NCBI GenBank assembly: GCA_944386195.1
Contig: CALXAD010000004.1
Span: 11,996 to 75,995 of the forward strand
DNA length: 64,000 bases
Direction: 5' to 3'
Origin: an uncultured Clostridia bacterium
Lineage (GTDB): Bacteria > Bacillota > Clostridia > TANB77 > CAG-508
The translations under genes were made by a program, and so were the position numbers. Shown piece by piece: positions 21,538-54,164 of the stretch. The notes beneath the pieces are model-generated. The model ran no database searches, was not told where the DNA came from, and saw only the letters and a program-made list of their open reading frames with translations. The first letter of the stretch is position 1; the number at the start of each line of letters is the position of its first letter.

Positions 21538-21649
21538 GTGATAGAATTAAATAATGTTTGTTTTTCTTATAATAATGAAAAACAAACACTTTCAAACATT
21601 AATATAAAAATAGAAGATAATGAAAGTGTAGGAATAATAGGAGCAAATG
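21538..21649 (+). pseudogene. cbiO: 5-prime fragment of the ABC ATPase gene cbiO, cut inside the Walker-A codons by the island
   Basis: GTG 21538, VIELNNVCFSYNNEKQTLSNINIKIEDNESVGIIGAN, then island sequence. The reading frame resumes at 54164. Confidence 0.85.
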
Positions 21650-21672
21650 CACCCCATATCTGATGACGAACT
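21643..21672. other. Left island junction (attL-like): GCAAATG duplication plus terminal inverted repeat
   Basis: GCAAATG at 21643-21649 recurs at 54158-54164. TATCTGATGACGAACT at 21657-21672 is the exact reverse complement of 54136-54151. Confidence 0.75.
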
Positions 21673-22277
21673 ATTATAAAGATAATAATGAAGCTTTGAA
21701 AGTGGCTAGGAACAGCACTTTTATAGATTCTAGAATAATATCAAGAATTTTTAAACATATAAAAAATAAAGGAATTTTAGCAGAAACAATAAAAATAAAT
21801 ATGGATCCGTTAAAAGAAATTAAACAAAAACCAAAAAAAGATTTTATTGATCAAATAACTTTATATAGAGATTTGAGAGGATATACTAAAAAACAATTAG
21901 CAGAAGAATTAGGGATTTCACCACAAAAGATGTCTAATTATGAAATGAGAAGAGTGGAAATGAAAAATCCTAAAATTATTCAAGGAATAATAAATATATT
22001 AAATATTGAAAATCCTAATTTAACAAAATACCAAAGATTTTTATTAGAAAATCCAAACGAAAAAATAAAGGATTATATATTAGAAAATAACGAAGATTTG
22101 AGAGAAATATCAAAAATATTGAGTATAGAGCCAAAAACAATTATGAATTGGATTTTGCATGACGATGTAATTATATCTGAAGAAAGCTATAATAAAATGA
22201 AAAGAAATTACAATAAAATATTCCATCAAGGAAAGCATAATTATCTTGAAGAAGATGAAGAGGAAGAACAAGAATAG
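21663..22277 (+). CDS. XRE-type helix-turn-helix protein (two HTH-like segments)
   Basis: RDLRGYTKKQLAEELGISPQKMSNYEMRR. The start codon lies inside the island terminal repeat. Confidence 0.55.
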   Translation: MTNYYKDNNEALKVARNSTFIDSRIISRIFKHIKNKGILAETIKINMDPLKEIKQKPKKDFIDQITLYRDLRGYTKKQLAEELGISPQKMSNYEMRRVEMKNPKIIQGIINILNIENPNLTKYQRFLLENPNEKIKDYILENNEDLREISKILSIEPKTIMNWILHDDVIISEESYNKMKRNYNKIFHQGKHNYLEEDEEEEQE

Positions 22278-22301
22278 GAGTGTAGCATCACTCTTTTTTT
22301 T
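22278..22301 (+). terminator. Rho-independent terminator
   Basis: GAGTG tagcat CACTC followed by T8. Confidence 0.65.
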
Positions 22302-22325
22302 ATACTCAAAAAGAAAGGAAGAAAG

Positions 22326-22895
22326 ATGGCATTAGTAATAGATATCCAGAAAAAGCCGATAGAAAATGTAAAAAGAAGAAAAATAAATCAAACATCAGAT
22401 GTATTTCAATTACAAGAAATACAGGAGATAAAAGATGCAACACAAGAACCTTTTTTTATGTTAGGGTTAGATTCAAAAAATAATATAACTAATATAAATC
22501 TAATAGGTGTAGGAACAAGTAAAAATGTATATATAAGCAGTAAAGATATTGCTAGAACGGCTTTAATTAATAATAGTGATAAAGTTATTTTTGTACATAA
22601 TCATCCATCAGGAGAGCTTATTCCAAGTAAAGATGACATACATTTAACCAATTACACTGGTCAAATATTAAAGGCATTCAATATACAGCTATTAGATCAT
22701 GTAATAGTAACAAGTAGCAATTATGCTAGTATCAATATAGAAAAATATAAATCAATGTTTGAAGAATCAGATAAAGCTTTAAAAATGGATAAAGCATTAT
22801 TAATTGAGGAAAATAACAAATTAAAAGAAGAAGTAAAAATATTAAAGAGGAAGTTACAAAAAACAAAAAATCAAGAAGAGGAGTTTGAATTTTAA
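22326..22895 (+). CDS. radC: RadC-like JAB/MPN-domain protein with C-terminal coiled coil
   Basis: JAMM-like motif VHNHPSGELIPSKDD. Confidence 0.8.
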   Translation: MALVIDIQKKPIENVKRRKINQTSDVFQLQEIQEIKDATQEPFFMLGLDSKNNITNINLIGVGTSKNVYISSKDIARTALINNSDKVIFVHNHPSGELIPSKDDIHLTNYTGQILKAFNIQLLDHVIVTSSNYASINIEKYKSMFEESDKALKMDKALLIEENNKLKEEVKILKRKLQKTKNQEEEFEF

Positions 22896-22907
22896 GGAGG
22901 AATTTAA

Positions 22908-51655: not shown

Positions 51656-51678
51656 AGTTATGCTCTATTAATCCCTTC

Positions 51679-52143
51679 ATGCAAAAAAAGTGTTACAAAA
51701 AAGTCAACCAAAAGGATGTAAAAATGGTAAAGAAATATGTGATTATAGATTTATATTACTTAAAAAAATATAAGATAGTTGATATTGCAAAAGAATTAAA
51801 TGTTTCAAAGCAATATGTATCTAAAATAGTAAAACAAGATTCTAGATATATTGAAGAAAAAGCTAGAAGAAAGTCTGAAAATAAAGAAAAACAAAATCAG
51901 TATAGAAAAAATTTTATGAAAAATAGAAGACAAAGGATTGCTGATGAAAACTATGCTTTAAAGAATATGCATGATCAAGCAAGTAGGGAGATGTCTACTG
52001 GAAGAACAATTTCTAATCGTGCATTTAGAAATTGGAATTCTTCAATATATAAATATAATAAGCAGAAAAAAGTATATGAACTAAAAAAAGGAATCAAGAC
52101 AAGTTCTGATGTACCTAAAAGAATAAATTGGAAAGGATATTAA
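51679..52143 (+). CDS. HTH protein with basic C-terminal region (start may be ATG 51724)
   Basis: YKIVDIAKELNVSKQYVSKIVKQ helix-turn-helix. Confidence 0.5.
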   Translation: MQKKCYKKVNQKDVKMVKKYVIIDLYYLKKYKIVDIAKELNVSKQYVSKIVKQDSRYIEEKARRKSENKEKQNQYRKNFMKNRRQRIADENYALKNMHDQASREMSTGRTISNRAFRNWNSSIYKYNKQKKVYELKKGIKTSSDVPKRINWKGY

Positions 52144-52178
52144 AAATGTAAGCACATATTTCCGTATAGGAGGAAATA

Positions 52179-52340
52179 TTGAATATTATATTAAAACATG
52201 AAAATGACTCCTATATATACAATTTGGCTTATATAAGGGCATTACTTATAGTCAAAAGAATAGAAAATTTAGATATTAGTTATGATGAAAAATTAGAGGT
52301 AAAAAAAGAAGTATTAGAATACTTAAAAAATCATGAGTAA
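52179..52340 (+). CDS. Hypothetical 53-aa protein immediately upstream of the recombinase (directionality-factor position, function unknown)
   Basis: AGGAGG RBS, then TTG 52179. Ends 11 nt before the recombinase start. Confidence 0.3.
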   Translation: MNIILKHENDSYIYNLAYIRALLIVKRIENLDISYDEKLEVKKEVLEYLKNHE

Positions 52341-52351
52341 TAGGAGTCAAA

Positions 52352-54136
52352 ATGAAGAAAAAAATTAAAATAGCAGTATATTCCAGAAAATCAAAATATA
52401 CTTTAAAAGGTGACTCTATTGGAAATCAAATAGAACTAGCAATGGAATACATTAAATCTCATTATCCAGAAGAAAAATACAATGTAGAAGTTGAAGTGTT
52501 TGAAGATGAGGGATTTTCAGGAGGTACACTAGATAGACCAAAATTCAAAAGGCTTATCCAAGAAGAAAGGATAAAGCCTTTTGACATTCTTATATGTTAT
52601 AGATTAGATAGAATTAGTAGAAATATTGCAGACTTTTCAAATTTAATGAATGAAATTACAGAATTGGGGACAAGCTTTGTTTCTATAAAAGAACAATTTG
52701 ATACAAAAACACCTATGGGCAGGGCAATGATGTATATTGCATCTGTTTTTGCACAATTAGAAAGAGAAGTTATCGCTGAAAGAATTAGAGATAACATGAT
52801 TGAACTAGCCAAAACTGGAAGATGGTTAGGTGGAGATGCTCCAATAGGATATAAAAGAGAAAGTTACAAAGTTGTTGATGTATATGAAGAAAGTGAAGAT
52901 AATGTATTAGAAAAGAAAAAGAAAACAGCTTGTAAACTGGTTAATGATGAAGAAACCATAGATGTTGTTAAATTAATTTATAGTAAATATTTAGAATTGA
53001 AATCATTAGCAGGGTTAGAAAAATATTTATACCGTCATGATATCAAGACTAAAAACGGAGTGTATTTTACTGCAAATAGGATAAGAGCTATATTATCAAA
53101 TCCAGTATATAGTACAAATAGTAAAGAGGCTGTTCAATATTTTTTAGATAAAGGAATACAAGTTTTTGCAGAAGGCGAAAAAGCAAAATTTGATGGAGAA
53201 TATGGATTAATAGCATATAATAAGACTAAAGGTCACAATACCCCAAGACCAATGGAAGAATGGATTGTTGCTGTTGGACTCCATAAAGGAATAATAGATG
53301 GTCTTAATTGGGTAAGAGTACAAGATTTACTTGAAAAGAATGCTGAAAAAAGTTATAGACGTAATAATTCATTAAATGCAATTTTATCAGGTTTAATAAG
53401 ATGTAAAGATTGTGGCGAATATATGAGACCGAAATTAACGAACAAAATGGATGCTACAGGAACAAGAAAAAGATTTTATTATACTTGCGTGAAAAAAGAA
53501 AAAAGCAGAGGGAAAAAATGTCAAGCTAAAAATGTGCCAGGGATTTTGGCAGATACCAGATTGCTAGAAACATTAAAGAATGTATTTGTTCCAAATTCTG
53601 AAGTATATAAAGAATTGAAAAAAATGACTATTACCAAAGAAATGGATGATCAAGAAGATGAATTAGAAACATTAAAAAAAGAGTATAAGAAAAATACAAT
53701 TGAAATTAAAAACTTAATTGATAAACTTAAATATATTGATGTTTCTGTTGTAGAATATGTAAATGAAGAATTAAAAAATCTAAAAAATAGAAATGAAGAA
53801 ATACAAAAAAAGATTGATAAAATAGAATCAGATGATATAATAAAACAAAGTGAAAGTATCCAAGTAAAAAAAGGAGCAGAATTGATTTTAGATATTATAG
53901 ATAATTGCTTTAATACTTTTGAGTCTTTTGATATTAAATTTAAAAAAGACATTTTAAGAATTCTAATAGAAGGTATAACAGGAACAAAAGAGGAGTTAGA
54001 AGTAAATTTATTAAATACTAAATTAGAAGAAAGTAGGAAAAGGATCTTTTCAGATGTAGTTACAAAAGAGATTGAAGATATCGAAAATACAGTAGAATTT
54101 TCTGGTGAGGAGAGTGATGACCTAAAAAAAGTATAA
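52352..54136 (+). CDS. Large serine recombinase
   Basis: Resolvase catalytic domain (IAVYSRKSK..., YRLDRISRN), recombinase domain, zinc-ribbon CKDCGEYM...YYTC, and a long coiled coil. The stop codon abuts the island end. Confidence 0.9.
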   Translation: MKKKIKIAVYSRKSKYTLKGDSIGNQIELAMEYIKSHYPEEKYNVEVEVFEDEGFSGGTLDRPKFKRLIQEERIKPFDILICYRLDRISRNIADFSNLMNEITELGTSFVSIKEQFDTKTPMGRAMMYIASVFAQLEREVIAERIRDNMIELAKTGRWLGGDAPIGYKRESYKVVDVYEESEDNVLEKKKKTACKLVNDEETIDVVKLIYSKYLELKSLAGLEKYLYRHDIKTKNGVYFTANRIRAILSNPVYSTNSKEAVQYFLDKGIQVFAEGEKAKFDGEYGLIAYNKTKGHNTPRPMEEWIVAVGLHKGIIDGLNWVRVQDLLEKNAEKSYRRNNSLNAILSGLIRCKDCGEYMRPKLTNKMDATGTRKRFYYTCVKKEKSRGKKCQAKNVPGILADTRLLETLKNVFVPNSEVYKELKKMTITKEMDDQEDELETLKKEYKKNTIEIKNLIDKLKYIDVSVVEYVNEELKNLKNRNEEIQKKIDKIESDDIIKQSESIQVKKGAELILDIIDNCFNTFESFDIKFKKDILRILIEGITGTKEELEVNLLNTKLEESRKRIFSDVVTKEIEDIENTVEFSGEESDDLKKV

Positions 54137-54164
54137 GTTCGTCATCAGATACGGTGGGCAAATG
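54136..54164. other. Right island junction (attR-like)
   Basis: AGTTCGTCATCAGATA at 54136-54151 is the reverse complement of 21657-21672. GCAAATG at 54158-54164. Confidence 0.75.

Follow-up and report, generated by a model that had tools for sequence, protein, structure and literature searches.

A serine recombinase island that splits cbiO in an uncultured Clostridia bacterium probably targets the Walker A codons of ABC-transporter ATPase genes

Structure of the interrupted cbiO locus

A stretch of 64,000 nucleotides from an uncultured Clostridia bacterium (assembly GCA_944386195.1, contig CALXAD010000004.1), hereafter the window, was analysed. It contains an island of 32,515 bp that sits in the codons for the ATP-binding Walker A motif of cbiO, a Ni/Co transporter gene. 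An earlier note, made from the sequence alone, had described this island as a possible gene-intervening element bounded by a large serine recombinase (LSR). The features at the two ends of the island are as follows.

21538..21663, plus strand: cbiO 5′ fragment, 37 host codons ending in ...GIIGAN, four island codons (A-P-H-I) and a TGA stop at 21661-21663
21620..21672, plus strand: attL, with the host B arm ...GGAATAATAGGAGCA, the crossover AA at 21646-21647 and the element P′ arm TGCACCCCATATCTGATGACGAACT
52352..54136, plus strand: LSR gene, 594 aa, with Resolvase, Recombinase and Zn_ribbon_recom domains
54136..54195, plus strand: attR, with the element P arm AGTTCGTCATCAGATACGGTGGGCA, the crossover AA at 54161-54162 and the host B′ arm TGGAGCAGGAAAGTCTAC...
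54161..54778, plus strand: cbiO 3′ fragment, from N-GAGKST... to the stop, with the first in-frame start (TTG) at 54191

The split described in the earlier note was confirmed: the cbiO frame ran from GTG at 21538 to GGA-GCA-AAT (G-A-N, 21640-21648), resumed with GGA at 54164 (GAGKSTFLKLL...) and stopped at 54778. GCAAATG, reported there for both junctions, was located at 21643-21649 and 54158-54164, and a repeat search recovered the inverted ends (21648-21672 and 54136-54160; 25 nt, 88% complementary, with a perfect 16-nt core). The left end of the intervening DNA is CACCCCATATCTGATGACGAACT and the right end is AGTTCGTCATCAGATACGGTGG. A 19-nt degenerate arm pattern matched the window twice, once at each end and in inverse orientation, against a chance expectation of 0.

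When the two halves were joined in silico, a 241-aa open reading frame (ORF) was obtained that contained GANGAGKST (Walker A), LSGGQ and the Walker B sequence ILIFDEP. A single ABC_tran match (profile positions 1-136/137) covered the joined ORF, as expected if both halves belong to one homologue, which the earlier note had assumed. The joined ORF also matched ECF/cobalt-ATPase NCBIfam profiles and, aligned over 100% of its length, shared 95-98% identity with intact 241-aa metagenomic proteins. An identical 41-aa stump product was called in 15 independent assemblies, and the 3′ fragment, if expressed at all, lacks Walker A. A start at attR that could rescue the 3′ fragment was considered and rejected, as the frame following the LSR stop (V-R-H-Q-I-R-W-A-N-G) has no start codon. 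Because the 5′ stump ends in an island stop and the 3′ part has no start before Walker A, the transporter ATPase is inactivated.

Alleles without the island were found in the contigs L001 and L002, each of which has an empty site with a single GCAAATG. L001, a 42-kb ENA contig, is collinear with the window: its positions 5235-8112 correspond to window positions 18772-21649 at 97.5% identity, its positions 8106-16726 correspond to 54158-62837, and the 7-bp GCAAATG is precisely what these blocks have in common. L001 thus follows the window as far as 21649 and rejoins it at 54158, and L002 does so likewise. Excision by conservative exchange would be expected to rebuild cbiO exactly and scar-free, with CAGATACGGTGGGCAAATGCACCCCATATCTG as the circular (attP) junction and ATAATAGGAGCAAATGGAGCAGGAAAGTC as the repaired cbiO site. 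The occupied junctions also recurred. Independent assemblies of eight other samples (L085-L090, L127 and L128) contained the attR in cbiO and those of 15 other samples the attL, on ENA and Logan contigs that different assemblers had built; the mis-assembly that the earlier note had named as a possible refutation is not what these junctions indicate. ERR4096498, SRR30169960, ERR12723917 and ERZ18533879 are among the carrier samples.

Uninterrupted cbiO alleles were found with two versions of Walker A, GANGAGKST and GANGVGKST (GCA to GTA, 8 nt from the crossover; L001 8106-8125, P0001-P0010), and the occupied cbiO alleles seen all carried GCA, not GTA. One allele group (P0010; eight member sequences) had five substitutions clustered on the attB core (GTIGANGDANSTY), with loss of the Walker lysine. 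These changes could reflect escape or decay of the site, or coincidence.

Recombinase and attachment sites

The last gene of the island encodes an LSR, as the earlier note had proposed: PF00239, PF07508 and PF13408 all scored above their cut-offs, and the TAA stop abuts the right arm. The protein has kept all of the 90-odd residues that are invariant among 47 homologues, including the Y10-S11-R12 catalytic motif, and matched the PHROGs integrases at 1e-106, and DUF4368 gave no Pfam match to it at E ≤ 0.01. The reconstructed attP (AGTTCGTCATCAGATACGGTGGGCA-AA-TGCACCCCATATCTGATGACGAACT) is 52 bp long and symmetric at 22/26 positions. For the reconstructed attB, the best dyad centre coincides with the attP centre, between GCAA and ATG. 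The 7-bp GCAAATG is the core common to attP and attB around a 2-bp crossover, and not a target duplication.

The position of the exchange can be read from sites at which the host differs from the element. In L137, the host has C directly before AA (ACC-AAT), where attP has A; in L124, the host has C directly after AA (the Asn codon AAC), where attP has T. Together, these sites place the exchange within the AA with which the Asn codon starts, in agreement with the dyad centre. Serine recombinases cut with a 2-bp stagger, which also agrees with an AA crossover. Since AA is not palindromic, every insertion has the same orientation and reading frame.

In IMG/VR, neither the attR pattern nor the arm pattern gave a match, and no LSR above 53% identity was found. 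The 31 degenerate matches to the attP arm in JGI metagenome contigs were rejected as chance matches, being mostly in high-GC unrelated DNA with no GCAAATG core.

Insertion sites in other ABC ATPase genes

The window LSR belongs to a cluster of 12 members at ≥ 90% identity, and the contigs of six members and of a relative at 78% identity (L004) were fetched. In all of the fetched cluster members and in L004, the LSR stop is followed by the P arm and then by ...GCAAA(T/C)GG and Walker A codons. The sequences at the right junctions and the interrupted genes are listed below; all LSRs except that of L004 belong to the ≥ 90% cluster.

Window, L085-L090, L127 and L128: ANGAGKSTFLKLL after the crossover; cbiO
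L003: ANGAGKTTTIKAIL after the crossover; target adjoining an ABC2_membrane_5 gene
L091: ...TTTIRMLL; target with a DrrA1-3_C domain, adjoining ABC2_membrane_2/3
L092: ...TTTMEMLT; target adjoining ABC_tran_2
L124/L125 and L126: NGSGKTTLLNMI...; ABC-F-type target, 485 aa, with ABC_tran_Xtn
L149: NGIGKSTLLKTIMGEIK; target fragment too short to classify
L004 (LSR 78% identical): ANGAGKTTMIKLIV; target fragment too short to classify

At least five unrelated target genes (encoding CbiO, a DrrA-like protein, two ABC2-type ATPases and an ABC-F protein) were thus interrupted at the same codon. The target proteins were mutually 21-32% identical, except for the orthologues in L124 and L126 (86%). The host ends at the left junctions agreed with this pattern, reading ...GIIGAN in cbiO and in a second cbiO-like gene (L144), ...FGLLGTN in L137, ...FGFIGPN in L139, ...IGIVGQN in L147 and ...GILGPN in L148. 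For two pairs of left and right junctions from the same sample (L137 with L091 and L139 with L092), the joined halves each gave a complete ABC_tran domain; the sites read GTNGAGKT (L137/L091) and GPNGAGKT (L139/L092).

At the protein level, the motif at the insertion codon is G-x-N-G-x-G-K-[ST]-T, that is, Walker A. At the DNA level, the consensus of the host B arm is ..T.GGaaT..TaGGA.cA-AA and that of the B′ arm is AA-tGG.gC.GGaAAaaC.AC, with conserved positions that track the codons. No other G-x-[NS]-G-x-G-K-[ST] site was found within the window. The earlier note had pointed to a highly conserved P-loop coding sequence as the target; the motif is indeed conserved, but it is not a one-site curiosity and instead constitutes the defining specificity across at least five ABC ATPase genes. 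We therefore consider it probable, at roughly 0.8, that the island is an LSR-moved integrative element whose attB is the DNA encoding [IL]-G-x-N-G-x-G-K-[ST]-T in ABC-transporter ATPases.

Recent spread of the island

The cbiO-occupied copies comprised at least three host-flank haplotypes, which differed by 24-38 substitutions per 1.2-1.3 kb (2-3%), with the differences starting 108 nt beyond the right junction and 219 nt before the left one. In contrast to this divergence of the flanks, the island ends differed by only 0-2 substitutions per 1.2-1.8 kb across the cbiO copies. The right flank of L127 was nearer to the empty allele L001 than to the window flank. A similar contrast was found in the ABC-F-type targets, where the LSR regions of L124/L125 and L126 showed 0 differences in 1,800 nt, although the target orthologues were only 86% identical. 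Near-identical island DNA therefore occurs in host backgrounds differing by 2-14%, which indicates recent spread. Independent site-specific insertions would be the simplest reading of the difference between flank and island divergence. Between the cbiO copies and L137/L139, the left 1.2 kb differed by 4-5 nt and the LSR region by 62-77 nt, indicating that the elements are mosaic.

Gene content of the island and the host operon

The genes between the two ends of the island, in order, are listed below.

21663..22277, plus strand: island gene 1, 204-aa regulator with a double helix-turn-helix (HTH; XRE-type; HTH_3 and HTH_19; PHROGs transcriptional regulators)
22326-22895, plus strand: RadC-like JAB protein (Pfam RadC, 9e-30)
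22908-24026, plus strand: full-length S-adenosylmethionine synthetase MetK (three S-AdoMet_synt domains)
24161-25738, plus strand: Amidohydro_3 protein (Pfam; variable cargo)
25847-26293, plus strand: BclA_C protein (Pfam; variable cargo)
26535-27812, minus strand: IS110-family transposase (Pfam; variable cargo)
28321-29166, plus strand: ORF with LRR_5 and CAP, 5′ part of a nonsense-split dockerin gene
29209-29976, plus strand: ORF with Big_2 and dockerin, 3′ part of the nonsense-split gene
30014-32653, 32690-35353 and 35421-38450, plus strand: BspA-type leucine-rich repeat (LRR) proteins with dockerin (Pfam)
38480-40225, plus strand: ricin-type lectin with dockerin (Pfam)
40267-41907, plus strand: LRR and transglutaminase-like protein with dockerin (Pfam)
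41948-45547, plus strand: LRR_4 protein with dockerin (Pfam)
45634-48555, plus strand: scaffold, 973 aa, with a signal peptide, one cohesin, eight Big_2 domains and an SPKTG sorting signal
48622-49416, plus strand: class B sortase (sortase_srtB TIGR03064, 161.9 against a cut-off of 153.75)
49494..50188, minus strand: Spo0A_C-like regulator pseudogene, 240 aa (receiver-like and Spo0A_C), with two frameshifts giving ORFs of 160 aa and 70 aa
50607-51101, plus strand: sigma-70 region-4-like protein (Pfam, PHROGs)
51091-51655, plus strand: small ORFs of 61, 58 and 35 aa in the recombinase-proximal module
51679-52143, plus strand: HTH protein (Pfam, PHROGs)
52179-52340, plus strand: 53-aa ORF in the recombinase-proximal module

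The first gene is placed in an unusual manner with respect to the junction. Its ATG (21663) lies within the P′ arm, 14 nt from the crossover, and overlaps the stump stop as TGATG (21661-21665); no Shine-Dalgarno-like sequence was seen before the ATG upon inspection of the sequence. Owing to the fixed insertion frame, the ...N-A-P-H-I-stop/ATG arrangement is identical at all attL seen (L129-L148). With this layout, the integrated gene 1 could only be transcribed from the interrupted host operon, from which it is probably expressed, and the stump and gene 1 might be translationally coupled. In the circle, 44 nt would separate gene 1 from the LSR gene upstream of it.

A scan for promoters and terminators yielded no useful signal in the AT-rich DNA, with 37 promoter-like sites against 40 expected. 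The best sigma-70-like match near the LSR gene (TTGATA-16-TGaTATAAT, 53814-53841, plus strand) lies inside its 3′ end and faces outward across the att site, and its extended −10 is kept in the 78% relative L004. Little weight is given to this site because it is also coding sequence (D-D-I-I).

The HTH regulator, the RadC-like protein and MetK form a left module that is conserved in L137, L139 and L147. The RadC-like and MetK genes are the most conserved part of the left end, with 4-5 differences per 1.2 kb across insertion sites. Similarity to other island copies stops after metK, and the cargo beyond it is variable. Another IS110 copy abuts attL in L144.

At the opposite end, the Spo0A_C-like gene and the sigma-like gene of the recombinase module are oriented divergently. 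L003, L004, L091, L092 and L124 carry an intact 240-aa version of the Spo0A_C-like gene, and the L091 homologue (7143-7865, minus strand) scored 30.3 bits for Spo0A_C against a cut-off of 25. By alignment, the window copy has +1 and −1 indels, and the same two frameshifts were present in every cbiO-inserted copy examined. In the adjoining module (50607..52340), all ORFs are open and are 53-77% identical in L004. Its genes are candidates for regulators or for a recombination directionality factor (RDF).

Much of the central cargo encodes a predicted system for surface display. Seven secreted proteins encoded between 28321 and 45547 (plus strand) end in a type I dockerin; the Dockerin_1 scores were 20.5-29.8 bits against a cut-off of 22.9, with 4/7 above it, and the C-terminal 60-aa modules were near-identical. 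The first of these genes is divided by an in-frame TAA (29164-29166) into two ORFs of the same frame (28321-29166 and 29209-29976). Given that its homologue in L091 is one long CAP/Big_2/dockerin protein, the gene is regarded as nonsense-split in the window. The genes at 30014-32653 and 32690-35353 are tandem paralogues. The scaffold contains the single cohesin (PF00963, E = 7e-12) at residues ~36-165, and this cohesin, sortase and dockerin cargo was also found on the islands of L091, L092 and L124. The dockerin proteins carry only LRR_5, LRR_4, RicinB, transglutaminase-like, CAP and Big_2 domains, with no glycoside hydrolase or carbohydrate-binding module (CBM) among them in Pfam. The lack of glycoside hydrolases in the cargo points to modular adhesin display rather than to a cellulosome, and the dockerin-tagged proteins are most likely adhesins on a surface-display kit.

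No capsid, terminase, tail, relaxase or type IV secretion system (T4SS) family was found when all ORFs ≥ 100 aa were scanned against Pfam and PHROGs, consistent with the earlier note. The same scans revealed no portal or lysis genes, coupling protein or recognisable origin of transfer (oriT) in the island, although a cryptic oriT is possible.

On the host side, cbiO is preceded by the following genes.

16848-18047, plus strand: larC (NCBIfam equivalog above the curated cut-off)
18047-18793, plus strand: larB (NCBIfam equivalog above the curated cut-off)
18866-19693, plus strand: larE (NCBIfam equivalog above the curated cut-off)
19709-20728, plus strand: cbiMN fusion (CbiM/CbiN matches)
20721-21521, plus strand: cbiQ (ECF_T_CbiQ match)

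The order larC-larB-larE-cbiMN-cbiQ-cbiO also adjoins the empty site in L001. The interrupted cbiO belongs to a lar nickel-cofactor cluster rather than to the sporulation genes. Based on the known organisation of lar operons, the split cbiO most likely encodes the ATPase of a nickel (or Ni/Co) importer serving the synthesis of the nickel-pincer cofactor.

Proposed mechanism and alternative explanations

In the mechanism proposed here, the window LSR would act as the catalyst and pair the 52-bp near-palindromic attP on a circular element with an attB of ~35 bp that follows the motif codons. It would cut attP and attB at the AA with which the invariant Asn codon starts, exchanging the strands conservatively, so that the non-palindromic AA would admit the island in one orientation and one reading frame. 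Landing in cbiO would inactivate the Ni/Co uptake ATPase of the lar cluster, and the TGATG overlap at the stump stop would put gene 1 under the interrupted host operon. The island is predicted to be competent for excision and would presumably have some route of transfer between cells.

Several observations weigh against this reading. The circular attP junction was absent from all 149 fetched loci (contigs, not reads), and no RDF was identified in the island. Since the Spo0A_C-like regulator is frameshifted in every cbiO copy, the cbiO copy may be regulatory-defective. No relaxase, T4SS or phage transfer machinery that would suggest a route between cells was found in the island. The flanks are mosaic, and homologous recombination within them may therefore spread the cbiO insertion. 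The attB motif is provisional because only ~10 distinct sites were seen. Good attB-like sites nearby were unoccupied (e.g., L092 13465), and the insertion sites all come from metagenome contigs.

Among the alternatives, a reversible switch resembling active lysogeny would have the island cycle in and out of ABC genes, with read-through into gene 1 coupling the decision to transporter expression. Conservative LSR chemistry permits scar-free restoration, gene 1 falls under host-operon transcription and translation at every site through the TGATG overlap, and occupied and empty alleles are interleaved by flank similarity. This interleaving is, however, equally explained by independent insertions or recombination, and with no excision product among the fetched loci, no RDF and a broken regulator in the window copy, such a switch seems unlikely. 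An equally doubtful possibility is that the LSR evolved to read a protein-family motif, so that every ABC ATPase gene with G-x-N-G-x-G-K-[ST]-T codons in AT-rich usage would qualify as a target, with dozens of non-mutable attB per Firmicute genome, and that the TGATG-coupled gene 1 feeds the expression of the broken transporter (e.g., under metal starvation) back on excision and repair. If true, this would constitute a conditional, self-reversing gene interruption outside sporulation.

The island might alternatively be an immobile remnant of a single insertion in cbiO that has spread only by homologous recombination of the flanks. Signs of decay (the frameshifted regulator, the nonsense-split dockerin gene and the IS110 insertion), the mosaic flanks and the lack of transfer genes would fit such a history. 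Nevertheless, the full-length LSR retains every residue that is invariant in the family, neither att site is damaged, and a near-identical left end (4-5/1,200 nt) and an LSR region at 96% identity occur in other ABC genes and in diverged hosts. The flank differences, moreover, begin just 108 and 219 nt from the junctions. Taken together, we regard this explanation as improbable.

A domesticated element of the skin/SPbeta type, fixed in cbiO and excised only in a terminal cell type, for instance the mother cell during sporulation, or under a defined condition so that cbiO is rebuilt, appears very unlikely. The LSR family does include many sigK-interrupting recombinases and one dpaB-interrupting recombinase, the rejoined cbiO is perfectly in frame, a Spo0A_C-domain regulator and a sigma-like gene adjoin the LSR gene, and the cbiO insertion is common across samples. 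The same LSR cluster is, however, found in at least five unrelated ABC genes, cbiO functions in metal uptake, and the same population commonly has cbiO alleles without the interruption. Furthermore, the island DNA is far younger than the host-flank divergence, and it is exactly the cbiO copies that carry the Spo0A_C-like gene as a pseudogene.

Finally, an assembly artefact joining unrelated contigs at a repeated P-loop sequence is hardly credible, even though the data are metagenomic and every genome has repeated Walker A DNA, because both junctions occur in many independent assemblies made with different assemblers, the inverted attP arms lie exactly at the breakpoints, the attL and attR halves rebuild whole genes, and the sequence common to different insertion sites is only ~7 bp, which makes a chimeric join at a repeat not viable.

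Comparison with known systems

Among GTDB representative genomes, the nearest LSRs were at most 59% identical to the window LSR, and 0/80 relatives abutted Walker A. As no LSR there exceeded 59% identity, the P-loop-targeting clade is absent from the GTDB representatives. Annotated phage and plasmid collections contained no LSR relative above 47% identity. Many GTDB relatives at 40-46% identity (in metagenome-assembled genomes of Clostridia, Oscillospiraceae and Lachnospiraceae) were followed by sigK codons. In three of them (L015, L016 and L017), the sequence beside the LSR was scanned and gave SigK NCBIfam as the best match, starting at position 113-115 in two and at ~127-129 in the third. 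One relative at 50% identity interrupts dpaB (L011), and further relatives (L012 and L008) interrupt a gene for a macro-domain ADP-ribose hydrolase and an ABC permease gene. The LSR relatives thus form a family of gene-interrupting LSRs with shifting targets. Judged from these comparisons, P-loop targeting appears to be a derived specificity of a narrow clade at ≥ 78% identity.

Gene-intervening elements include skin (sigK, SpoIVCA), SPbeta with SprA-SprB in spsM, gin in gerE and yin in yabG (PMC4191935; PMC5499854; PMC5595907; PMC5025042; PMC10747680). The island resembles skin and SPbeta in having an LSR at one end and an in-frame insertion in a coding sequence, such that conservative excision would restore the gene. 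Whereas those elements each have one dedicated sporulation target and rely on an RDF and mother-cell-specific excision, at least five ABC genes are targeted here, none of which is known to be sporulation-specific. The likeness drawn in the earlier note accordingly stands for the precise LSR island, the in-frame gene split and the homology of the LSR to sigK- and dpaB-interrupting recombinases (40-46% and 50%); it does not extend to the at least five unrelated targets, the non-sporulation function of cbiO or the recent mobility, and no circular junction or RDF was found.

Multi-targeting LSRs have been defined as 90%-identity clusters found in over three clusters of target genes at 50% identity, and some of them have complex motifs (PMC10083194). 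The cluster of the window LSR counts as multi-targeting because cbiO and the targets in L003, L091, L092 and L124/L126 (plus L149) exceed three target clusters. In this respect it resembles Cp36 and TndX/TnpX (Tn5397, Tn4451) (PMC10083194). In the TndX-like clade, 63% of the members carry DUF4368, and the motifs are short or AT-rich around a dinucleotide (PMC10083194). The window LSR differs from that clade in that it has no DUF4368, uses a long, codon-structured motif and has single-gene-targeting, skin-type LSRs as its nearest relatives by identity. ABC or Walker targets are not mentioned in the text and supplements of PMC10083194 that were examined. Across the literature searched (PMC10083194; PMC5704250; PMC3158075), nothing was found on an LSR or integrase targeting Walker A, a P-loop or an ABC ATPase, which is not proof of novelty.

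Integrative and mobilizable elements (IMEs) with serine recombinases disrupt conserved genes such as rumA and traG, and IME_oriT targets the conserved nic site of unrelated integrative and conjugative elements (PMC5704250). The island shares with IMEs a small-footprint, LSR-bearing structure without conjugation machinery inside a conserved gene, and with IME_oriT the use of a conserved functional motif at several loci (PMC5704250). Unlike IMEs, it has no recognisable relaxase or oriT, and its target is the coding motif of a whole superfamily. A repeated target is also known from another kind of element. The integrase of mycobacteriophage phiRv1 is an LSR that uses several REP13E12 copies as attB. 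REP13E12 is, however, a species-restricted repeat element, whereas the coding motif targeted here is universally conserved and belongs to a paralogous family.

With respect to the cargo, sortase-anchored scaffoldins with a single cohesin are known from Ruminococcus flavefaciens (ScaE-type) and from the amylosomes of R. bromii (PMC2930009; PMC4611034). The island is similar in combining a cohesin scaffold bearing a sortase signal with multiple dockerin proteins, including LRR and non-enzymatic ones. It differs in having no glycoside hydrolase or CBM, in its location on a mobile island and in its class B sortase with SPKTG.

Site-specific integrases usually choose one conserved locus, for example a tRNA or single housekeeping gene. 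Under the proposed targeting of Walker A codons, the target would instead be the coding sequence of the most conserved motif in the largest paralogous ATPase family. Such a target cannot easily mutate away, and each host would offer many copies, most of them in dispensable transporters. The island is best described as an LSR integrative island whose high specificity is directed to the motif of a protein family, so that each genome would offer multiple attB, and which carries a mobile cohesin-dockerin adhesin system. High specificity with a family-motif aim would blur the line between site-specific and multi-targeting recombinases. For genome engineering, this would provide a natural LSR whose bacterial landing pad is long, defined and ubiquitous. 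In terms of gut ecology, a complete cohesin-dockerin adhesin kit could move horizontally at the cost of a transporter knock-out (here Ni/Co uptake for a lactate-racemase-type cofactor).

Other observations in the flanking DNA

An Rfam scan of the whole window gave no match. The host flank contains an IS200/Y1 transposase gene (61643-62461, plus strand), which is also present beside the empty site in L001. The obg gene is seemingly split at 8120-9395, where one ORF (8120-8560) matches GTP1_OBG positions 2-107 and a second (8409-9395) matches OBG positions 99-155 plus the GTPase domain; in this essential gene, a frameshift or an error of sequencing is suggested. A gene similar to mreB/mbl is present as pieces of 57 aa and 254 aa in several independent assemblies (window 58865-59629; L001 12553-13564; L002; L127), and the large ORF of the window begins at MreB profile position 77. 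Proteins with BclA_C, an exosporium-type C-terminal domain, are encoded in both the host flank (14097-14627) and the island (25847-26293), which is consistent with a spore-forming clostridial host.

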